From: an uncultured Bacilli bacterium | Lineage (GTDB): Bacteria > Bacillota_I > Bacilli_A > RF39 > UBA660 | Length of the DNA stretch: 64,000 bases | Assembly (NCBI GenBank): GCA_934096735.1 | Contig: CAKOMS010000002.1 | Span: 19,073-83,072, forward strand | Direction of reading: 5' to 3' | Part shown: positions 18,545 to 56,018 of the stretch, in pieces | How positions within the stretch are numbered: the stretch's first letter is position 1 | How the letters are laid out: each line of letters begins with the position of its first letter | Notes under the pieces: generated by a model | Seen by the model: only the letters and a program-made list of their open reading frames with translations | Database searches by the model: none | What the model was told of the DNA's origin: nothing | Translations under genes and position numbers: made by a program

Positions 18545-18702
18545 ATTTTAAAGAGAGTTAACATTAGGTGAAAGTTAATAAATTAGTTTAATAATTACTA
18601 TTCTCTAGAGAGGCCAATCACCTCCGGCGAAAACCGTTATATAAATTAAGTTAAACCAAGGATGGTACCGTGTAATTCACTCCTATTTTTTAGGAGTTTT
18701 TT
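18545..18702 (+). promoter_or_regulatory. T-box leader (tRNA-Thr responsive) with terminator
   Basis: AGAGAG box at about 18551. Candidate specifier ACT-A at 18597-18600. T-box sequence AAACCAAGGATGGTACCGTG at 18654-18673. Terminator ACTCCT-atttttt-AGGAGT plus T-run at 18679-18702. Confidence 0.8.
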
Positions 18703-25852: not shown

Positions 25853-26599
25853 ATGACAATATATATAGATTTATTATTTATATTAAACTTTATATATGAT
25901 TTTATCTTACTACTAACAGTTTGCATTACTTTAAAAAGAAATGTAACAATAAAAAGAATACTACTTTCTTCTTTATTTGGAGCATTTACAACATTTATAA
26001 TATTATTACCATTTAATAAATACATAATTTTTATTCTAAAAATATTATCTAGTTTTATTTTAGTAATAATAGCATTTAGATATAAAGATATAAAATACTT
26101 TTGGAATAATTTAATGTATCTATATATGTGTAGTGTTATTTTAGGAGGATTTTTGTATTTTTTGAAACTACAATTTAATAATCTATCATACTATATTGTT
26201 ATTCTATTTGGACCAATAATTTTATATATGTATAAAAAAATGCAAAAAGAATTATATGAAAAAGTAAATTATTTTAAAAAAGTAATTATCAATTTTAAAA
26301 ATAATAATACCTTGATTTTAAATGGATTTATAGATAGTGGAAACAAATTAAAAGATCCAATTACTAAAAAATATATAATTTTAATAAATAAAAATAAATT
26401 AAAGGGCATATATAATATAAGAAGCCCAATGTTTATTCCAATAGTAACAGTAAACAAACATAGTCTGCTAGAAGTAATAGGTATTAAAAATATAGTAATA
26501 GATAATAAAACTTACAATAATTATTTACTAGGTTTTACAAATCATACATTCAGTGATGGAATAGAATGTTTATTAAATTATCATTTATTGGAGGATTAA
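25853..26599 (+). CDS. spoIIGA: Sigma-E processing peptidase SpoIIGA
   Basis: Five N-terminal TM segments, a GFIDSGNKLKDP aspartic-protease motif, and position directly upstream of sigE. Confidence 0.85.
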   Translation: MTIYIDLLFILNFIYDFILLLTVCITLKRNVTIKRILLSSLFGAFTTFIILLPFNKYIIFILKILSSFILVIIAFRYKDIKYFWNNLMYLYMCSVILGGFLYFLKLQFNNLSYYIVILFGPIILYMYKKMQKELYEKVNYFKKVIINFKNNNTLILNGFIDSGNKLKDPITKKYIILINKNKLKGIYNIRSPMFIPIVTVNKHSLLEVIGIKNIVIDNKTYNNYLLGFTNHTFSDGIECLLNYHLLED

Positions 26600-26601
26600 A
26601 A

Positions 26602-27285
26602 ATGTTTAAAAAAATTATAGAATTTTTAAAATTAAAATATAATGAATGCTTTTTTGTTGGAGCAACAGATAAGTTGCCACCACCATTAAAAAAAAATAGA
26701 GAATTAGAATTATTATTAAAAGCTAAAGAAGGTGACATAGAAGCCAGAAATATATTAATTGAACATAATTTAAGATTAGTAGTATTCTTAGCAAAAAAAT
26801 ATGAAAATACTGGTTTTGATATTGAAGATTTAGTGTCAATCGGTTCAATTGGATTAATAAAAGGAATAAATACATATAAGCCAGATAAAAATATTAAGCT
26901 TGCTACTTATGCATCAAGATGTATAGCAAATGAAATATTAATGTTTTTAAGAAAAAATAAGAGAAAAAGAATAGAAGTAAGTTTAGAAAGTACATTAAAT
27001 TATGATGTAGAAGGAAATGAATTACATTTAGAAGATATTTTAGGAACTAGTATAGATGAAGTACCAAAAAAGTTTGAAAACATTATGGATAAAGCTACTT
27101 TAAAAAAGGAAATTGAAACACTAGGAGAAAGAGAAAAAGAAATAATGACATTAAGATATGGCTTAAATAATACAGAAGAATATACCCAAAAAGAAGTAGC
27201 AGAACTTTTAGGCATAAGTCAATCTTACATTTCTAGAATAGAAAAAAAAGTAGTAAAAAAATTACAAACTATTATGAAAACTTAA
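26602..27285 (+). CDS. sigE: Sporulation sigma factor SigE (pro-sigma-E)
   Basis: Pro-sequence then FFVGATDKLPPPLKKNRELELL. Sigma-70 regions 2 and 4 are present. GGAGG precedes ATG 26602. Confidence 0.9.
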   Translation: MFKKIIEFLKLKYNECFFVGATDKLPPPLKKNRELELLLKAKEGDIEARNILIEHNLRLVVFLAKKYENTGFDIEDLVSIGSIGLIKGINTYKPDKNIKLATYASRCIANEILMFLRKNKRKRIEVSLESTLNYDVEGNELHLEDILGTSIDEVPKKFENIMDKATLKKEIETLGEREKEIMTLRYGLNNTEEYTQKEVAELLGISQSYISRIEKKVVKKLQTIMKT

Positions 27286-27409: not shown

Positions 27410-29440
27410 ATGAGCAAAAATAGCTTCCGGGGGGGGGTTGTGAAACTCCTTCTTGGAATAGAAATAGTAACTTTATTTTTAGGGATTAAGAGTTTTGGTA
27501 ATAGACCATCAGAAAAATTAGATGATATAAAACTGCTACAAGCCATACATAAAAATAGTTTATATGCAGTAATGGTAGATGATGGGTCAGGTAATTATAC
27601 TGAAGGAAATGACTTTCCAATAGAAGGTTACATATTTAATAAAGAAAAATCAAAATGTATAGATTCAAATGGAAATACTTTAAATGATGAATTAAATTTT
27701 GTAAATGGTAATGTTGAAGTAACACTAGGTAAAACAGCATTTTGTTATTTATATTTTGATAAAAACAGTGAAACAATAATAACTTTAACAGTTACAAATG
27801 GTGTTGAGTCATATCAAACTGTACAATTTGAAGCAGCAGATGAAGACGGAATTGCAGGTGTTTACTACGGAATGGATAACCCAGAAGATACTGAAGTAAA
27901 TTATTCGGAAATAAGTGATGGTTCAACAACTAAATCTGTACAATTTATTGCAAGAGCATATGGTATTTATTATTTTTCGGTAAAAGATATACATGGTATG
28001 GTTACTACAACAAGTAGAGAATTTTTTGAGACGAAATTTAGCGTAGAAAATGGATCAGTAACACCAGCAAGTGTTATAACTTTAAAAGGTAATTCATTTG
28101 CATTACCTACTCCTAGAGCTAAGCCAGGATATACCGTAAGTACAACATGGCACGGAAATGGAACAACTTATGCAATCGGAAGTACATATACACCAACAAC
28201 AAATTCAACATTAACGGCAAATTCAAGTCAAAATAGATATAATGTAACTTTAACAATAACAAATGGAACAACTACAAGCGTAAATCCACAAGCAGTATTA
28301 CATGGTAGTTCGGCTTCATTTGCAATAACACCAAATACTGGATATGATTTAGTATTAGCAAGTGATACATGTAGTGGAACATTATCAGGATCAACCTATA
28401 CAGTAAGTAATGTTACATCAGCAAAAAGTTGTGCAATAACGCTTAAAAAGAAAACTTATAGTGTAAAAATAACAGTAACAAATGGTTCGACGAGCAGTAC
28501 AAATCCCCAAACAGTAGAACATGGTGGTTCAGCAAAATTCACAATATCAGCAAAGAGTGGATATCAATTATCATTATCATCGAATGGATGTGGTGGAACA
28601 CTATCAGGAAGTACTTACACAATTAGTAACGTAACTAGTGCAAAAACTTGTACAATAGTACTAAAAACAGCTTTAGCAGGTGATGCAATAAAAGCATTAA
28701 AACCAACCGGACTTGAAACAGTAGCAAGAGATGGGTTATATAGATTTGTAGGATCATCAAACAACTACGTATGCTTAGGGACTTGTAGTGACACTACAAA
28801 ATATAGAATAATTGGAATAACAGATGGTTCAAGTGGTAACACTAATTTAGGAATAAGTTCTGGACAATTAAAAATAAGAAGAGCAGTAGCCTTTGGAAAA
28901 ACAACATGGGGTGTCGACGACTGGTACAGCACAAAATGGGTTGATGCAAATTACTGGCAAGCCAAAACAGTTTATACTTATTTGAATATTACGAATAAAT
29001 CATCAATAATACCAAGTGGATGGAGTGACAAAATTTCTTCGGTTAAATGGAACATGGGAGATGTTAGAACTTTAGGAACCGGTAATGCAACATATAAATT
29101 AGAAGCGGCTGATCCAACTACAGATACATCACAAATAGGATTAATATATTTAAGCGATTATTTATATAGTGAAACAGCAGGAGGAACTACAATTTGTTAT
29201 GGAACAACATATTGTACAAATTCATGGATGAGACCTTCAGCAGGTTTTCAGGAATGGACAATGGGATATTATGGAGAAGAAGATAACAAAGGTAGAGCCT
29301 GGTCACTTATTAATAACCACGCAATATATCAAGTAAGGAGTTTATCACGTGATGTATATCCAGTATTTTATTTAAAAAATACTGTATCATTTACAGGAAC
29401 TGGAAATGGAACATCTTCAAACCCATATATTTTATCTTAA
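27410..29440 (+). CDS. Large surface protein, family member A (signal-anchor, conserved N-module, InlB-B-repeat-like modules, C-terminal W..RPA..PY domain)
   Basis: 676 aa. The N-terminal TM is VVKLLLGIEIVTLFLGI. It has 73-aa modules with conserved Cys pairs (..NPQ..HG.SA.F.I....GY.......C.GTLSGSTYT.SNVTS...C.I.LK). The C-terminal domain ends VYPVFYLKNTVSFTGTGNGTSSNPYILS. Confidence 0.85.
   Translation: MSKNSFRGGVVKLLLGIEIVTLFLGIKSFGNRPSEKLDDIKLLQAIHKNSLYAVMVDDGSGNYTEGNDFPIEGYIFNKEKSKCIDSNGNTLNDELNFVNGNVEVTLGKTAFCYLYFDKNSETIITLTVTNGVESYQTVQFEAADEDGIAGVYYGMDNPEDTEVNYSEISDGSTTKSVQFIARAYGIYYFSVKDIHGMVTTTSREFFETKFSVENGSVTPASVITLKGNSFALPTPRAKPGYTVSTTWHGNGTTYAIGSTYTPTTNSTLTANSSQNRYNVTLTITNGTTTSVNPQAVLHGSSASFAITPNTGYDLVLASDTCSGTLSGSTYTVSNVTSAKSCAITLKKKTYSVKITVTNGSTSSTNPQTVEHGGSAKFTISAKSGYQLSLSSNGCGGTLSGSTYTISNVTSAKTCTIVLKTALAGDAIKALKPTGLETVARDGLYRFVGSSNNYVCLGTCSDTTKYRIIGITDGSSGNTNLGISSGQLKIRRAVAFGKTTWGVDDWYSTKWVDANYWQAKTVYTYLNITNKSSIIPSGWSDKISSVKWNMGDVRTLGTGNATYKLEAADPTTDTSQIGLIYLSDYLYSETAGGTTICYGTTYCTNSWMRPSAGFQEWTMGYYGEEDNKGRAWSLINNHAIYQVRSLSRDVYPVFYLKNTVSFTGTGNGTSSNPYILS
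27429..27437 (+). repeat. G9 homopolymer in codons 7-10 of gene A (in frame)
   Basis: Counted directly: ttcc-GGGGGGGGG-ttgtg. Confidence 0.95.
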
Positions 29441-29451
29441 AATTCTTATAG

Positions 29452-29475
29452 GAGAGCAATAACGCTCTTTTTTTG
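29452..29475 (+). terminator. Terminator after gene A
   Basis: GAGAGC-aataac-GCTCTT plus 7 T. Confidence 0.6.
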
Positions 29476-29515: not shown

Positions 29516-29604
29516 TTGAATAAAAATAAATTTTATAGTATTCTATTAATAGAAAGATAGAAAATAAGTAAGAAGAAACATTTACTTACTCGGAGGTTGA
29601 TAAA
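29516..29604 (+). promoter_or_regulatory. Conserved promoter/leader of surface-protein family (copy B)
   Basis: TTGAAT-17-TATTCT and a leader nearly identical to the copy at 53403. Confidence 0.6.
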
Positions 29605-29622
29605 ATGAGCAAAAACAGCTTC

Positions 29623-29631
29623 GGGGGGGGG
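29623..29631 (+). repeat. G9 homopolymer in gene B (out of frame)
   Basis: Counted directly: ttc-GGGGGGGGG-ttgtga. It lacks the C that precedes the tract in A and D. Confidence 0.95.
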
Positions 29632-30632
29632 TTGTGAAACTCCTTCTTGGAATAGAAGTAATAACTTTATTTTTAGGGATTAAGAGTTTTGGTAATAAAA
29701 ATAACAGATTAGATGATATTAAATTATTAGATAGTAAATCTGATAATCTTTTTGCAATTATGATAAAGGATGCTAGTGGTAATTATAATGAATCAAGTAC
29801 ATTTCCAACTGGAGCATATGTACTTAATGAAACAATGTCATCATGTGTAGATAATAATGGTAATAAGATAGATAATGTACTTAGTTATAGTGATGGAGTA
29901 GTATCATCAAGAACAAATAAGACAGTATATTGTTATTTATATTTTGATAAAAACAGTGAAACAATATTAACAATAACAGCTTCAAATGGTGTTGAGTCAT
30001 TTCAAACTGTACAATTTGAAGCAGAAGATGAAAACGGAATTGCAGGTGTTTACTACGGAATGGATAACCCAGAAGATACTGAAGTAAATTATTCGGAAAT
30101 AAGTGATGGTTCAACAACTAAATCTGTACAATTTATTGCAAGAGCATATGGTATTTATTATTTTTCGGTAAAAGATATACATGGTATGGTTACTACAACA
30201 AGTAGAGAATTTTTTGAGACGAAATTTAGCGTAGAAAATGGATCAGTAACACCAGCAAGTGTTATAACTTTAAAAGGTAATTCATTTGCATTACCTACTC
30301 CTAGAGCTAAGCCAGGATATACCGTAAGTACAACATGGCACGGAAATGGAACAACTTATGCAATCGGAAGTACATATACACCAACAACAAATTCAACATT
30401 AACGGCAAATTCAAGTCAAAATAGATATAATGTAACTTTAACAATAACAAATGGAACAACTACAAGCGTAAATCCACAAGCAGTATTACATGGTAGTTCG
30501 GCTTCATTTGCAATAACACCAAATACTGGATATGATTTAGTATTAGCAAGTGATACATGTAGCGGAACATTATCAGGATCAACCTATACAGTAAGTAATA
30601 TCACATCAGCAAAAAATTGTGCAATAACGCTT

Positions 30633-31070
30633 AAAAAGAAAACATATACGTTTAGAATAAGTTTAGGTAATGCTACCACAAGTAGTACAAACCCACAAAC
30701 AATAGAACATGGAGGAAGTGCAACGTATGTAATAAATCCAAAAGATGGTTATGATTATGTGGCATCAAGTGATACCTGTGGAGGAACATTTAGTGGTAAA
30801 AATTATATCATACCAAATATTACATCAGATACAAAATGTACACTTGTACTTAAAAAGAAAACATATACGTTTAGAATAAGTTTAGGTAATGCTACCACAA
30901 GTAGTACAAATCCACAAACAATAGAACATGGAGGAAGTGCAACGTATGTAATAAATCCAAAAGAAGGTTATGATTATGTAGCATCAAGTGATACTTGTGG
31001 AGGAACATTTAATGGTAAAAATTATATCATACCAAATATTACATCAGATACAAAATGTACACTTGTACTT
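30633..31070 (+). repeat. Two tandem 219-bp (73-codon) near-identical repeats inside gene B
   Basis: AAAAAGAAAACATATACGTTTAGAATAAG... restarts at 30633, 30852 and (diverged) 31071. Only a few mismatches between the two units were seen by eye. Confidence 0.9.
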
Positions 31071-31349
31071 AAAAAGAAAAGCTATAAAATATCATTATTA
31101 GTTAGAAGACGTATTTCGACTGGTGCAGTTCAAAATACTCGGGAATCTCTAACGGTGAATCACGGAGAAAATGCAGTATTTTCAGTATATAATGAAGATG
31201 GTAATTATAATTTATATAATTCATATTTGAATACCAATACTTGTGGAGGAGTCTTTACAAAAGCTAATAATAAAATGACATACACTTTAAGTAACGTAAC
31301 AAGTGATATGGAATGTGAAATACTAGTTACATATAATGGAACTTACTAA

Positions 31350-31556
31350 GATGCAAAAAAATCATCACAATTTGATGTGAACCATGTCTAGGAGACATCA
31401 ATAGTTACTATATATATTAATATGTATAAAGAATATAGTTCACAAAAAAGTAGTAGATATACTCCACCATACTCATCATTAATTATATAAAAAAATACTG
31501 TATCATTTACAGGAACTGGTAATGGAACATCTTCAAACCCATATATTTTATCCTAG
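31350..31556 (+). pseudogene. Decayed 3' remnant of a family member
   Basis: 31490-31556 encodes KNTVSFTGTGNGTSSNPYILS*, identical to the end of gene C. Upstream sequence (..agtagat..) shows only degraded similarity with stops. Confidence 0.7.
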
Positions 31557-31672: not shown

Positions 31673-31690
31673 TTATTGGAAGGTAAAATT

Positions 31691-32467
31691 ATGGCAAAAT
31701 ACAAAGTAGATATTAGTGGAGTAAATACAAGTGAATTAAAAGTTTTAAAAAACGACGAAATAAGAGAATTATTTATAAGACTTAAAAATGGAGATACTTC
31801 TGCTAAAGAAGAATTAGTAAATGGAAACTTAAAATTAGTTTTATCAATACTTGGAAAATATTCAAATAGTAAATATAACATGGATGATTTATTTCAAGTA
31901 GGAGTAATTGGTTTAATAAAAGCAATTGATAATTTTGACATTTCTCTTAACTTAAGATTATCAACCTATGCAGTCCCACTAATAATTGGAGAAATAAAAA
32001 GATATATTAGAGACAACACAGAAATAAGAATTAGCAGAAGCATAAAAGATTTAGCATATAAAATAATCAAATTTCAAGATGAGTATACAATAATCCATGG
32101 CTTTCCTCCAAAAAATGAAGAAATATGTGAAAGCCTAGGAATAGATGAATACGAAATATCTTATGCACTCGATGCCTTAAGAGATCCCACTAGTATATTT
32201 GAGCCAATTTACAATGATGGCGGAGACACAATCTTCTTACAAGATCAAATCGCAGACAAAAGAGAAATAGATAAAGATAGAGATATGTTAATTTCACTTA
32301 GAAGAGCACTTCAAAAAATAAAAGAAAAAGAAAAAAATATTTTAATATCTAGATTCATTATAGGAAAAACACAAACAGAAATTGCAGATTCTTTAGGTAT
32401 AAGTCAAGCACAAGTTTCTAGAATAGAGAAAAATGCTATTACTAATGTTAGAAAACTTATAAAGTAA
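31691..32467 (+). CDS. sigG: Sporulation sigma factor SigG
   Basis: MAKYKVDISGVNTSELKVLKNDEIRELF..AKEELVNGNLKLVLS..DDLFQVGVIGLIKAIDNFD closely parallels Bacillus SigG. Confidence 0.9.
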   Translation: MAKYKVDISGVNTSELKVLKNDEIRELFIRLKNGDTSAKEELVNGNLKLVLSILGKYSNSKYNMDDLFQVGVIGLIKAIDNFDISLNLRLSTYAVPLIIGEIKRYIRDNTEIRISRSIKDLAYKIIKFQDEYTIIHGFPPKNEEICESLGIDEYEISYALDALRDPTSIFEPIYNDGGDTIFLQDQIADKREIDKDRDMLISLRRALQKIKEKEKNILISRFIIGKTQTEIADSLGISQAQVSRIEKNAITNVRKLIK

Positions 32468-37483: not shown

Positions 37484-39520
37484 GTGAAAAAAAGATCATT
37501 TTTAATTATATTACTATTAATAATGGAGGTATCATTAATTTTTTTTAGTGTAAAAAGTTTTAATAATAAACCATCAGAAAAATTAGATGATATAAAACTG
37601 CTACAAGCCATTCAAAAAAACAGTTTATATTCAGTAATGATAAATGATGGAACTGGTAATTATACCGAAGAAAACGACTTTCCATCAAGCAATTACATTT
37701 TAAATAAAGAAAAATCTAAATGTATTGACTCAAATGGAAATACTTTAGAAGACGAATTAAATTTTGTAAATGGTAATGTTGAAGTAACACTAGATAAAAC
37801 AGCATTTTGTTATTTATATTTTGATAAAAACAGTGAAACAAGAATAACTTTAACAGTTTCAAATGGTGTTACGTCATCTCAAACTGTACAAATTGAAGCA
37901 GAAGATGAAGATGGACTTGCAGGTGTTTACTATGGAATGGATAACCCAGAAGATACTGAAGTAGAATATACTGAAGTTTATGATAGTCCAACAAGCAAAT
38001 CTTGGACATTTCATACATCAGGCCCAGGTATCTATTATTTTTCAGTAAAAGATATACATGGTATGGTTACTACAACAAGTAGAGAATTCTTTCAAACAAA
38101 ATTTAATGTAGAAAATGGAAGGGTAAATCCAACTAGTGTTTTAACACTAAAAGGTAATTCATTTATCTTACCAACCCCCGAATCTAGAAATCAAGGATAT
38201 ACCGTAAGTACAACCTGGCATGGCAATGGAACAACTTATGAAAGTGGAAGTACATATACACCAACAACAAATTCAACATTAACAGCAAATTCAACTCAAA
38301 ATAGTTATAATGTAACTTTAACAATAACAAATGGAAAAACAACAAGCGTAAATCCACAAACAGTATTACATGGTAGTTCAGCATCATTTGCAATAACACC
38401 AAATACCGGATATGATTTAGTATTAGCAAGTGATACATGTAGTGGAACATTATCTGGATCAACCTATACAGTAAGTAATGTTACATCAGCAAAAAATTGT
38501 GCAATAACACTTAAAAAGAAAACTTATAGTGTAAAAATAACAGTAACAAATGGTTCAACGAGCAGTACAAATCCACAAACAGTAGAACATGGTGGTTCAG
38601 CAAAATTCACAATATCAGCAAAAAGTGGATATCAATTATCATTATCATCGAATGGATGTGGTGGAACACTATCAGGAAGTACTTACACAATTAGTAATGT
38701 TACTAGTGCAAAAACTTGCACAATAGTATTAAAAACTGCTTTAGCTGGGGATGCAATAAGAGCATTAAAACCAACCGGACTTGAAACAGTAGCAAGAGAT
38801 GGGTTATATAGATTTGTAGGATCATCAAACAACTATGTATGCTTAGGGGCTTGTAGTGACACTACAAAATATAGAATAATTGGAATAACAGATGGTTCAA
38901 GTGGTAACACTAATTTAGGAATAAGTGCTGGACAATTGAAAGTAAAAAGAGAATCATCATTTGGAAAAACAACATGGGGTATTATGGACGATTTCAACAC
39001 AAAATGGGTTGATGCAAATTACTGGCAAGCCAAAACAATTTATACTTATTTGAATATTACGAATAAATCATCAATAATACCAAGCGGATGGAGCGATAAA
39101 ATTTCTTCGGTTAAATGGAATATGGGAGATGTTAAATTAGGAACTGGTTATTATGCGGAAGGAACAGCGAACGAAATTTATAAATTGGAAGCAGCAGAAC
39201 CAACTACAGCAACCTCGCAAATAGGATTAGTTTATTTAAGTGATTTTTCTTATAGCGAGTCTGTCGGAGGAACAACAATTTGTAAATATAACAATAGTTG
39301 TAAAAACTCTTGGATGAGTGATCGAATAGATTGGTGGACAATGGGCTATTTTGGTAAATCGGGAGAAAAATATAGAGCATGGAATATTCAACGTGGGACT
39401 CCAATAGCTCAAGTAAGAAGTAGATCTTTAGATGTATACCCAGTATTTTATTTAAAAAATACAGTATCATTTACAGGAACTGGTAATGGAACATCTTCAA
39501 ACCCATATATTTTATCCTAG
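37484..39520 (+). CDS. Large surface protein, family member C (full-length paralog of A, no poly-G tract)
   Basis: AGGAGG lies 6 nt before GTG 37484. It is collinear with A over its whole length, with scattered substitutions. The TM is FLIILLLIMEVSLIFFSV. Confidence 0.85.
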   Translation: MKKRSFLIILLLIMEVSLIFFSVKSFNNKPSEKLDDIKLLQAIQKNSLYSVMINDGTGNYTEENDFPSSNYILNKEKSKCIDSNGNTLEDELNFVNGNVEVTLDKTAFCYLYFDKNSETRITLTVSNGVTSSQTVQIEAEDEDGLAGVYYGMDNPEDTEVEYTEVYDSPTSKSWTFHTSGPGIYYFSVKDIHGMVTTTSREFFQTKFNVENGRVNPTSVLTLKGNSFILPTPESRNQGYTVSTTWHGNGTTYESGSTYTPTTNSTLTANSTQNSYNVTLTITNGKTTSVNPQTVLHGSSASFAITPNTGYDLVLASDTCSGTLSGSTYTVSNVTSAKNCAITLKKKTYSVKITVTNGSTSSTNPQTVEHGGSAKFTISAKSGYQLSLSSNGCGGTLSGSTYTISNVTSAKTCTIVLKTALAGDAIRALKPTGLETVARDGLYRFVGSSNNYVCLGACSDTTKYRIIGITDGSSGNTNLGISAGQLKVKRESSFGKTTWGIMDDFNTKWVDANYWQAKTIYTYLNITNKSSIIPSGWSDKISSVKWNMGDVKLGTGYYAEGTANEIYKLEAAEPTTATSQIGLVYLSDFSYSESVGGTTICKYNNSCKNSWMSDRIDWWTMGYFGKSGEKYRAWNIQRGTPIAQVRSRSLDVYPVFYLKNTVSFTGTGNGTSSNPYILS

Positions 39521-53490: not shown

Positions 53491-54861
53491 ATGAAAAAAA
53501 TAGACTTCCGGGGGGGGGTTGTGAAACTCCTTCTTGGAATAGAAATTACAACTTTATTTTTAGGGATTAAAAGTTTTGGTAATAAGAATAACATAATTGA
53601 TGATATTAAATTATTGGATAATAAATCTAATAATCTTTTTGCAATTATGGTACAAGATGATACGGGTAATTATGTAGAAAGTAGTGATTTTCCAAAAGGT
53701 AAATATAAATTAAATGATGAACTAACTGTATGTAATGATAATAATGGAGATAGAGTAGAAAATGTACTTAGTTACTCAAATGGTTTTGTAACTGTAACAA
53801 GTAAAAGAACTATATTTTGTTATTTGTATTTTGAACCTAAAGTAGATTTAATAATAAATGTTACAAATGAAACAATACCTAAAACATCTGGTTATAGTGT
53901 AGTATCAACTTGTCCAAACAGTAATTGGAGTGATAAATATCAAAGATTAGAACTTGGAGATATATCAAATCCAACAGTAGAATGTAATTTAACATATAAT
54001 AAAAGAACATTTGATGAAAGTAAAAAATTAAGTGCCATAGCATCCACAGTAGGAACTTCAGGAATTGGAAGTATAGTAGATGAGGGAGATGCAGGATTCA
54101 GATATGAAGGACAAGATCCAAATAACTATATCTGGTTTAATAATGAATTATGGAGAATAATCGGAGTAATACCAACAAAAGTAGATTCAAGTGGAACAAC
54201 AGAAAATTTAGTAAAGATAATAAGAAACTCCGCAATTGGAGGACTTGCATATGATGCAAATTCAACTGGTAAAGGAGCATGGGGAAGTAATACTTTGTAT
54301 AGTTTATTAAATGAATATTATTGGGGTAAAGAGAATGGAACAAATACAACAGGATGTTATGGATACCGAAATGAATACCGATCAACTTCAAAATCAAAAT
54401 GTGATTATACAAAAATTGGGTTAGAAACAACAGATTATTATGGTGATATGGTTAAGAAAGTATATTGGAATACAGGAGTAAGTATGTATGATAAAACAGC
54501 AAGTGAAGTGTACGAAACAGAAAAAACTGTCCAAACAGTATACAATTACATAGGACTCATGAGTGCAAGTGATTATGGATATGCGACAAGCGCATCGCAT
54601 AGCAAAAATCTTTCTTCATATAATAATGCAACCCATACATTAAACAATTGGTTATATGGACAAGGAGACGAATGGACAAATATTCTGAGTGTTCGTTCTA
54701 ATTATGCGACTTATGTGAGTTCTGGCGGGGATGTGAACGGCATTAGTGCGGCTCGTAGCAATGTGGCTCGTCCAGCCTTGTATATGGAGTCTGATATATA
54801 TGTGTACTCAGGAGATGGAAGTAAAGTCGATCCATATATTGTTTCGAAGAAATTAAATTAA
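53491..54861 (+). CDS. Surface protein, family member D (shared N-terminus and poly-G, shorter body, W..RPA..PY C-domain)
   Basis: MKKIDFRGGVVKLLLGIEITTLFLGIKSFGN. The N-module is conserved with A-C, followed by NYIWFNNELWRIIGVIP ... ARPALYMESDIYVYSGDGSKVDPYIV. Confidence 0.85.
   Translation: MKKIDFRGGVVKLLLGIEITTLFLGIKSFGNKNNIIDDIKLLDNKSNNLFAIMVQDDTGNYVESSDFPKGKYKLNDELTVCNDNNGDRVENVLSYSNGFVTVTSKRTIFCYLYFEPKVDLIINVTNETIPKTSGYSVVSTCPNSNWSDKYQRLELGDISNPTVECNLTYNKRTFDESKKLSAIASTVGTSGIGSIVDEGDAGFRYEGQDPNNYIWFNNELWRIIGVIPTKVDSSGTTENLVKIIRNSAIGGLAYDANSTGKGAWGSNTLYSLLNEYYWGKENGTNTTGCYGYRNEYRSTSKSKCDYTKIGLETTDYYGDMVKKVYWNTGVSMYDKTASEVYETEKTVQTVYNYIGLMSASDYGYATSASHSKNLSSYNNATHTLNNWLYGQGDEWTNILSVRSNYATYVSSGGDVNGISAARSNVARPALYMESDIYVYSGDGSKVDPYIVSKKLN
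53510..53518 (+). repeat. G9 homopolymer in codons 7-10 of gene D (in frame)
   Basis: Counted directly: ttcc-GGGGGGGGG-ttgtg. Confidence 0.95.
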
Positions 54862-54884: not shown

Positions 54885-56018
54885 ATGAAAAAATATTGTG
54901 TTGTAATTATGTCTGTTTTAGCAATTTTATTACTAACTTATTTTGCTTTACAAAGTAATGATAGTAATAAAATGTTTATGCAAGATGGAATACTTTTTGC
55001 TATGACAAAAGATGGAGAAGATATAACATCCTTTCCAACAGATGGTAAATATAAAGTTAGTATTGATTGTAAAAATGGTAAAGGTAATTATTTATATTTT
55101 GAAGATGAAAATAAATGGAAATTTACTGTAGAAAATATTACTGGAAAAGTAAGTTGTAATGTTGACTTTACAACTGTAAGTAATAGTGATTTATTAGGTG
55201 TAGTAGCATCCACAGTAGGAACCTCAGGAACAGGAAGTATAGTTAATGAGGGGGATGCTGGATTTAGATATGAAGGACAAGATCCAAATAATTATATTTG
55301 GTTTAATAATGAGTTGTGGAGAATAATTGGAGTTATACCAACAAAAGTAGATTCAAGTGGTACAACAGAGAATTTAGTAAAAATAATAAGAAATGAATCA
55401 ATTGGAGGACTAGCATATGATGCAAAGTCATCGTCATCTGGATCTACAGGAGCATGGGGAAGTAATACTTTGTATAGTTTGTTAAATGAATATTACTATG
55501 GTAAAAAAGATGGAACAAATACAACAGGATGTTATGGAAATCGAGCAACTGCCAAAGCAAAATGTGATTATACAGAAATAGGAATAAATGGAGCAGATTA
55601 TTATGGCAGTATGATAAAAAAAGTATATTGGAATACAGGAGCAAGTGATAATGGTGCAACAGCAAGTACTGTATATGGAACAGAAAAGGCTACTCAAACA
55701 ATATACAATTATGTAGGACTCATGAGTGCAAGTGATTATGGATATGCTACAAGTGCATCGCATAGTACAGATTTAGATTCTTATAATAATGAGATACACA
55801 CATTAAACAATTGGTTATATGGACAAGGATATGAATGGACAAATATTCAGAATTCTGACTATGCTTATCAAACACTTTATGTATTTTATCTGGGTGATGT
55901 GACTGGCACTATTGCGAGCTATGGCTCTGCAGTTCGTCCAGCAGTGTATCTAAATTCTAATATCTATGCATCATCTGGAGATGGATCACAATTAAATCCT
56001 TATATACTTATATATTAG
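54885..56018 (+). CDS. Surface protein, family member E (ordinary signal anchor, C-domain paralogous to D)
   Basis: ASTVGTSGTGSIVNEGDAGFRYEGQDPNNYIWFNNELWRIIGVIPTKVDSSGTTENLVKIIRN is nearly identical to D. It ends VRPAVYLNSNIYASSGDGSQLNPYILIY. Confidence 0.85.
   Translation: MKKYCVVIMSVLAILLLTYFALQSNDSNKMFMQDGILFAMTKDGEDITSFPTDGKYKVSIDCKNGKGNYLYFEDENKWKFTVENITGKVSCNVDFTTVSNSDLLGVVASTVGTSGTGSIVNEGDAGFRYEGQDPNNYIWFNNELWRIIGVIPTKVDSSGTTENLVKIIRNESIGGLAYDAKSSSSGSTGAWGSNTLYSLLNEYYYGKKDGTNTTGCYGNRATAKAKCDYTEIGINGADYYGSMIKKVYWNTGASDNGATASTVYGTEKATQTIYNYVGLMSASDYGYATSASHSTDLDSYNNEIHTLNNWLYGQGYEWTNIQNSDYAYQTLYVFYLGDVTGTIASYGSAVRPAVYLNSNIYASSGDGSQLNPYILIY

Follow-up and report, generated by a model that had tools for sequence, protein, structure and literature searches.

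We conclude, with a probability of about 80%, that gene B of the window (the whole 64-kb stretch of DNA that was analyzed) is an intact surface-protein gene under the control of a slipped-strand contingency switch that currently stands in the OFF position. According to the mechanism that we propose, B would belong to a paralogous family of membrane-anchored Ig-like surface proteins of gut Bacilli, and a poly-G tract that occupies codons 7-9 of the signal/anchor leader would control expression of the gene. G residues would be gained or lost through slipped-strand mispairing in replication, such that a TTC-G10 sequence would join the strong Shine-Dalgarno (SD)/ATG start to the body of the gene (ON state), and the G9 tract present in the window would end translation after 10 codons (OFF state). 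The slippage that gives rise to length changes is presumably frequent and reversible, little or no protein would be made from the OFF frame, and the cell would probably benefit by varying a surface antigen or receptor, as bet-hedging toward immunity, phages or niches. Direct observations comprise the anatomy of the locus, the polymorphism of tract length and the difference in ON/OFF state of orthologs between samples.

The first-pass annotation had stated that translation from ATG 29605 stops shortly after the G tract, that the body of the gene continues in another frame without further lesions and that a single added nucleotide would yield an intact gene. Our re-reading of the sequence agreed with it on each of these points. 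The leader ORF in its current OFF frame (29605-29637, + strand) consists of codons ATG AGC AAA AAC AGC TTC GGG GGG GGG TTG TGA, i.e., it encodes MSKNSFGGGL and ends with TGA at 29635-29637. The SD sequence GGAGG (29592-29596, + strand), which is invariant in every family leader examined, is located 8 nt 5′ of the ATG. Codons 7-9 are formed by a presumably hypermutable G9 homopolymer (29623-29631, + strand), and thus the 5′ part of the ORF contains a homopolymer of at least 8 nt. The body of B (29634-31349, + strand) begins with GTG, lies in the -1 frame relative to that of ATG 29605, is stop-free over 571 codons with no second lesion, and encodes a membrane helix, a linker and Ig-like beta domains. 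As can be seen from the leader alignment, the tract of B is preceded by TTC (TTC-G9) and those of paralogs A and D by TTCC (TTCC-G9), also as annotated. In the TTC context, G10 is in frame and G9 is out of frame; a change of one unit toggles the gene between a 10-codon leader followed by TGA (G9) and 581 codons (G10), and restoration of the C likewise gives 581 codons. In the OFF frame, TGA 29635-37 overlaps GTG 29634-36 (GTGA), a layout typical of translational coupling. An alternative genetic code in which TGA is a sense codon was considered and rejected: with TGA read through, the leader frame would end at TAG 29653-55, and housekeeping ORFs are intact under table 11.

Runs of at least eight G residues occur three times in the window, whose G+C content is ca. 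25%, and all three are found at the same leader position of A, B and D; the expectation in shuffled sequences is 0.03 matches. A putative promoter of B (29516-29544, + strand; TTGAAT, 17 nt, TATTCT) was assigned by alignment. It sits in an upstream block of ca. 90 nt that is nearly identical in D and largely common to A, and a simple promoter scan returned only the corresponding site of A (TTGAAT-17-TATGAT). The putative spacer of the B promoter (29522-29538) is A/T-rich and the G tract is in the coding sequence, which distinguishes B from promoter-spacer switches. A terminator-like hairpin followed by a T run (29450-29471, + strand) is located directly 3′ of the stop codon of A, suggesting that B is transcribed on its own.

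The 5′ UTR, SD, ATG and leader are common to A, B and D. Both A (27410-29440, + strand; 676 aa) and D (53491-54861, + strand; 456 aa) are in frame (ON), with TTCC-G9 at positions 27429-27437 and 53510-53518, respectively. Paralog C (37484-39520, + strand; 678 aa) has a different leader (VKKRSFLIILLLIMEV) without a G tract. The earlier description of B as fully homologous to A holds for the first 409 aa, over which the two proteins are 78% identical, but not past this point, where B contains extra Ig-like repeats and lacks the C-terminal domain of A (ca. 257 aa). A block of ca. 200 residues (~27800-28400 in A, ~29990-30590 in B) is 100% identical at the protein level amid flanks of 40-80% identity, which suggests recent gene conversion between these adjacent paralogs. 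B also carries a tandem repeat (30630-31080, + strand; 219 bp, 2.1 copies, 97% identical) that corresponds to a duplicated Ig-like module; since P0123, a 498-aa allele from another sample, has one copy of this repeat fewer, size variation appears to be superimposed on phase variation. A non-coding remnant of an A/C-type C-terminal end (31416-31553, + strand), 61-66% identical to the last ~40 aa, is found 3′ of the stop codon of B and seems to have been left behind when recombination replaced a 3′ end of A type. Adjoining D, there is an ORF (54885-56018; 377 aa) whose product is 68% identical to the C-terminal domain of D; this ORF lacks a tract, and its N-terminal signal (MKKYCVVIMSVLAILLL) differs from that of D.

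The gene order in the window is ftsA-ftsZ-spoIIGA-sigE-[A,B]-sigG, with cotE-D and spoIVB also present (sporulation and cell-division genes were assigned using Pfam tables of syntenic contigs). Genes A and B interrupt a conserved sporulation cluster between sigE and sigG (window 25853-27285, 31676-32467), and D follows cotE. Among ThrRS homologs that bear a name, the nearest are MAG proteins of 82-86% identity with the labels "Bacilli bacterium", "Clostridiales bacterium", "Tenericutes bacterium" and "Firmicutes bacterium". Contigs with near-identical genes come from human gut metagenomes, Hadza samples among them, and the host is apparently an uncultured, spore-forming lineage of gut Bacilli. 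In the region upstream of thrS (18560-18700), a T-box-like motif (aaggatggtaccgtg) is followed by a terminator-like hairpin; Rfam returned no T-box in this region at the gathering threshold.

In-frame alleles of B had been expected in sister genomes, and both predicted repairs were found. A homolog search with the body of B as the query retrieved P0001 (contig L001; 580 aa), which is 95% identical to B, covers 100% of it and is in frame by virtue of TTCC-G9. Protein P0122 (contig L071; 580 aa), which falls in the same 90%-identity cluster as B, begins with MKKNNFGGGVV and is in frame by virtue of TTC-G10. We then compiled 22 tract-bearing leaders, comprising those of the window and of 13 related contigs. 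Their tracts are G7, G9, G10 or G11 in length, as read from short-read metagenome consensus sequences, in which homopolymers can be misjudged. Seven of the 22 leaders are ON and 15 are OFF; the former fraction is close to the random-frame expectation and therefore is by itself no proof of selection on frame. The ON leaders carry TTCC-G9 (6/22) or TTC-G10 (1/22). Among OFF leaders, TTCC-G10 predominates (12/22), the remaining ones being TTC-G9 (1/22, B itself), TTCC-G7 (1/22) and TTCC-G11 (1/22).

Orthologous loci differ in state between samples. At the A locus (after sigE, in the sigE-sigG interval), the tract is G9 (ON) in the window and in contigs L091 and L072, and G10 (OFF) in L090. The D locus (after cotE) is represented by G9 (ON) in the window, by G10 (OFF) in two contigs, L093 and L094, and by G11 (OFF) in L092. 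Thus, tract length at orthologous loci is polymorphic between samples, as it is at contingency loci. Family gene content varies between strains as well (L072, L071, L001): a single A/B hybrid gene resides between sigE and sigG in L072 (10001-11752), and in L071 (7579-16253) four family genes stand in a row, with the B-type gene after the C ortholog. Leaders are also shuffled among bodies, P0001 having a D-type leader on a B body.

As to the origin of the B allele, the leader alignment indicates that its TTC context may derive from a TTCC to TTCG change, which stays in frame and produces TTC-G10 as in L071, followed by the loss of one G. Simple loss of the C is equally possible: since B has as many G residues as A and D and lacks only a C, the lesion could be an ordinary deletion. 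Under either origin, a +1 G slip repairs the frame.

A scan of metagenomes with a DNA pattern retrieved 17 loci, many of them cut at the tract; five of them matched by chance and are unrelated (L073-L075, L087-L089 in part). Contigs L078, L080, L082, L085 and L086 end, and contigs L025, L039, L043, L053 and L056 start, inside or exactly at a G tract. The repeated 5′ region or heterogeneity of tract length among reads could cause such breaks, which may bias the set of states that get assembled.

Real decay of OFF genes had been predicted to show as further frameshifts in relatives. Of 13 OFF bodies that could be read to the stop, 12 are open over 444-672 codons (two further OFF genes are cut by contig ends), and one, L071:15975 with a G7 tract, has decayed to 87 codons. 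This gene apart, OFF alleles are otherwise intact and non-decaying, as are those of contingency loci. The dN/dS ratio of B relative to the in-frame alleles is 0.27 (L001) and 0.37 (L071), and the ratio between the two in-frame alleles is 0.37, the same as the upper value for B. In these sequence comparisons, the divergence of intact OFF bodies carries the signature of purifying selection. The existence of in-frame alleles, the intact OFF bodies, the dN/dS values and the flips of state at orthologous loci together support the initial view of B as an OFF phase variant rather than a decayed pseudogene.

The tract region is also predicted to fold in RNA. The predicted sense-strand hairpin of B (29620-29651, + strand), UUC-G9-UU [GUGA] AA-CUCCUUCUU-GAA, has a dG of -17.3 kcal/mol (z -2.9), with the tract as its 5′ arm and the GTG in the loop. 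The hairpins predicted for A (27425-27458) and D (53506-53539) have the TTCC form, UUCC-G9-UU [GUGA] AA-CUCCUUCUU-GGAA, and a dG of about -21 kcal/mol. Because the stem relies on G:U pairs, only RNA of the sense strand can form it. With TTCC, a perfect 15-bp stem (-20.9 kcal/mol) arises at the in-frame length G9; the values are about -18 for G10 and G11 and -16.8 for G8. A second leader type has TGCTTGCA instead of TTGTGAAA and the loop CUUG instead of GUGA, and its stem is kept by a double change from U-A to G-C. The 3′ arm encodes Leu-Leu-Leu as CTC CTT CTT, a rare-codon run (CTCCTTCTT) that pairs with the G tract; in 23 further genes of the window, Leu is encoded by CTC in 0.5% of cases (P about 1e-4). 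By burying the SD-like G run and the internal GTG, the predicted hairpin would help to make OFF states tight. A tract-less leader type retains CTCCTTCTT without a pairing partner, and so shared ancestry or gene conversion could explain part of the conservation of the hairpin.

The AlphaFold2 model of P0001, the in-frame allele of B, has a mean pLDDT of 82.5 and consists of a helix at residues 10-24 (a predicted transmembrane (TM) segment), a low-confidence linker and a series of all-beta Ig-like modules. In the ON state, the leader provides a typical positively charged n-region (MKKxxFRGG) ahead of the predicted TM helix. None of the four proteins A-D matched a Pfam or NCBIfam family above threshold. 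The score of PF18998 (Flg_new_2, divergent InlB B-repeat) against B was 17.0 bits (E 0.0057) at a gathering cut-off of 23.6, and A and several homologs have precomputed matches to this family. A Foldseek search of the PDB with the P0001 model returned only generic multi-Ig surface proteins, e.g., B. anthracis TIE and YwfG. Like Firmicute Ig-bead proteins (InlB B-repeat/Flg_new_2, B. anthracis TIE 6fwv, YwfG 7yl4), members of the B family have an N-terminal export/anchor helix followed by tandem beta-sandwich modules; the similarity is at the level of fold only (TM-scores near 0.2, 8-13% identity).

The N-terminal module (the helix plus ~100 aa) is widespread, with 527 cluster representatives (50% identity) at E<=1e-3. 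In all cases it is N-terminal and is joined to C-terminal parts of very different lengths; no curated family matched its conserved ~100 aa. We read the A-D family as probably consisting of modular membrane-anchored or secreted surface proteins, judging by these models. A lipobox was looked for, and no Cys was present among the first 60 residues of A, B, D and P0001. A type IV pilin/pseudopilin signal, raised by a Glu in the hydrophobic helix and by a PF07963 match in the distant homolog P0104, was rejected: no G/FxxxE motif is suitably spaced, and relatives lack the Glu.

When species-representative genomes were scanned with the N-terminal module, 69 loci at 35-50% identity were found in "uncultured Bacilli" MAGs from rabbit and human gut and in one "uncultured Mycoplasma sp." MAG; the species of the window was not among them. 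Upstream of these distant family genes, 44 distinct promoters carry a G6-G10 tract between the -35 and -10 elements, outside of the ORF, with the pattern cTTGAC(A/T)cc-Gn-ta(a/t)taTATAAT (L002-L069, e.g., L042:2859-2900, L029:2921-2960). The spacer is 15 nt long, with G8, in 26 of the 44 promoters and 16 nt long in 12 (G9 in 11, G8 in one); spacers of 14 nt (G7) were found in four, and the optimal 17-nt spacer (G10) and a 13-nt spacer (G6) in one each. Several of these contigs, too, begin or stop exactly at the promoter tract. Judged by its position, the tract of the distant relatives belongs to the classic type of homopolymer phase variation that acts through the promoter spacer. The presence of a G tract in two switch positions of one family argues that the tract is kept by selection; such an arrangement would be difficult to account for if the tract were not retained for its mutability.

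Several other explanations of the B locus can be offered. The gene might still be expressed from GTG 29634, by reinitiation at the leader stop or with the G run acting as a mimic of the SD, in which case the tract would choose between isoforms with a long and a short leader, or set the level of expression, and would not be a true ON/OFF switch. The overlap of the leader TGA with this GTG is compatible with such a scheme, and the G11 tract of the D ortholog (L092:17990) leads into the same stop/start overlap. The G run also pairs with the canonical anti-SD as strongly as the real SD does (-10.9 vs. -10.2 kcal/mol). Furthermore, gene callers favor this site: out of 78 homologs with the LLLGIE motif, 64 were called from the GTG just 3′ of the tract (MKLLLGIE or MLALLLGIE) and 14 with an upstream leader; in every GTG-called gene whose DNA was inspected the conserved ATG leader was present out of frame. 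On the other hand, only 2 nt separate the end of the tract from the GTG, which places most of the tract too near to act as an SD. Tract and GTG are both enclosed in a stable predicted hairpin (-17 to -21 kcal/mol), and a protein started at the GTG would be devoid of the K/R-rich n-region. TTCC-G10, the most frequent OFF state, produces a 26-codon overlapping ORF without stop/start coupling, and no variation is seen among paralogs in the strong SD, the ATG or the leader. We consider this scheme unlikely; since a GTG overlaps the leader stop and is preceded by an SD-like G run, the OFF state of the switch may nevertheless be leaky. Repair at the level of RNA, through -1 ribosomal frameshifting or transcriptional slippage on the G run, would result in constitutive low expression. 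The body of B is indeed in the -1 frame, G GGG GGG fits the slippery X XXY YYZ pattern and a stable predicted hairpin involves the tract region. However, the hairpin contains the slippery site instead of being located 5-9 nt downstream of it, and the out-of-frame layout is not conserved, orthologs being in frame in DNA, contrary to what a programmed -1 frameshift calls for. G-rich A-site heptamers and G runs are, moreover, poor frameshift substrates compared with A/U runs, and this explanation appears improbable in the extreme.

One can also suspect a sequencing or assembly error beside the homopolymer, the true gene being in frame, given that homopolymers are prone to error and that many metagenome contigs break at or inside the G tracts of the family. 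Yet what distinguishes B from A and D is a missing C, with an equal G9 count, and the TTC context is present independently in L071. Out-of-frame tracts are in the majority in independent assemblies, some of which have ~79x coverage judging by contig names, and we find an error very unlikely. Finally, B may be a pseudogene at the onset of decay, its frameshift being permanent. Family members do decay, as illustrated by the 87-codon body of L071:15975, and a remnant of an A-type C-terminus is located directly 3′ of B. Against decay stand the 571 open codons of the body at ~25% G+C, the dN/dS of 0.27-0.37 relative to in-frame alleles, the near-identical in-frame B alleles present in other samples and the fact that a single G slip restores the frame. 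An incipient pseudogene is thus highly improbable, and a contingency switch in the OFF position is the reading that we retain.

Coding poly-G tracts are known from Neisseria pilC, in which the tract is in the signal/leader part, and from poly-G genes of Campylobacter jejuni, whose genome is low in G+C. The B family resembles Neisseria pilC, hmbR and nalP and the C. jejuni genes in having a G run near the ORF start, changes in its length that shift the frame, ON and OFF alleles and intact OFF ORFs; as in the Neisseria and Campylobacter contingency genes, there are several loci per genome, and the low G+C content is as in Campylobacter. The poly-G mechanism has been described for meningococcal ORFs (PMC3786947, PMC3723659). 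Unlike the Neisseria and Campylobacter genes, B family genes have no protein homology to them, reside in uncultured spore-forming gut Bacilli rather than in Gram-negative pathogens, and have a tract that doubles as an arm of a predicted, conserved RNA hairpin. In Mycoplasma hyorhinis Vlp genes, a poly-A tract is located in the promoter. The B family shares with Vlp a large paralogous set of surface proteins, combinatorial ON/OFF states and a variable number of internal repeats, and its distant relatives, with G6-G10 between TTGAC(A/T) and TATAAT and spacers of 13-17 nt, are similar to Vlp also in tract position, which is that of the Neisseria Opc type as well. Unlike in Vlp, the tract of the window species is in the coding leader and consists of G rather than A, and the proteins, which have no homology to Vlp or Opc, are not lipoproteins. 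Mycoplasma Vlp literature is listed in PMC11868660. Literature searches on this protein family or lineage found no paper.

A more far-reaching reading, which we offer tentatively and regard as possible but doubtful, is that the gut Bacilli clade keeps a large family of these Ig-like proteins, many to a genome, that the poly-G switch of the family moved in evolution between the promoter spacer and the leader codons, that the hairpin, perfect only at G9, is itself selected and that the three frames have three outputs. These could be the full-length protein, a reinitiated short-leader form made via the GTGA overlap and nothing. In such a scenario, the promoter-spacer position would mean transcriptional control, and the leader-codon position translational control.

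The switch mechanism is a classic, known one, seen here in an unstudied gut bacterium; what deserves further attention is the hairpin and the occurrence of the switch at two positions. There are practical consequences for the family, too, in that gene callers systematically mis-start its genes at the GTG after the tract and assemblies break at its tracts. Homopolymer contingency loci are best known from a few cultured pathogens, and here they are found at family scale in an uncultured, spore-forming commensal lineage of the human gut, to which only metagenomes give access. Across species, the family lends itself to comparing a single switch element in promoter and in coding-leader position, and its ON/OFF states could be scored directly in gut metagenomes.
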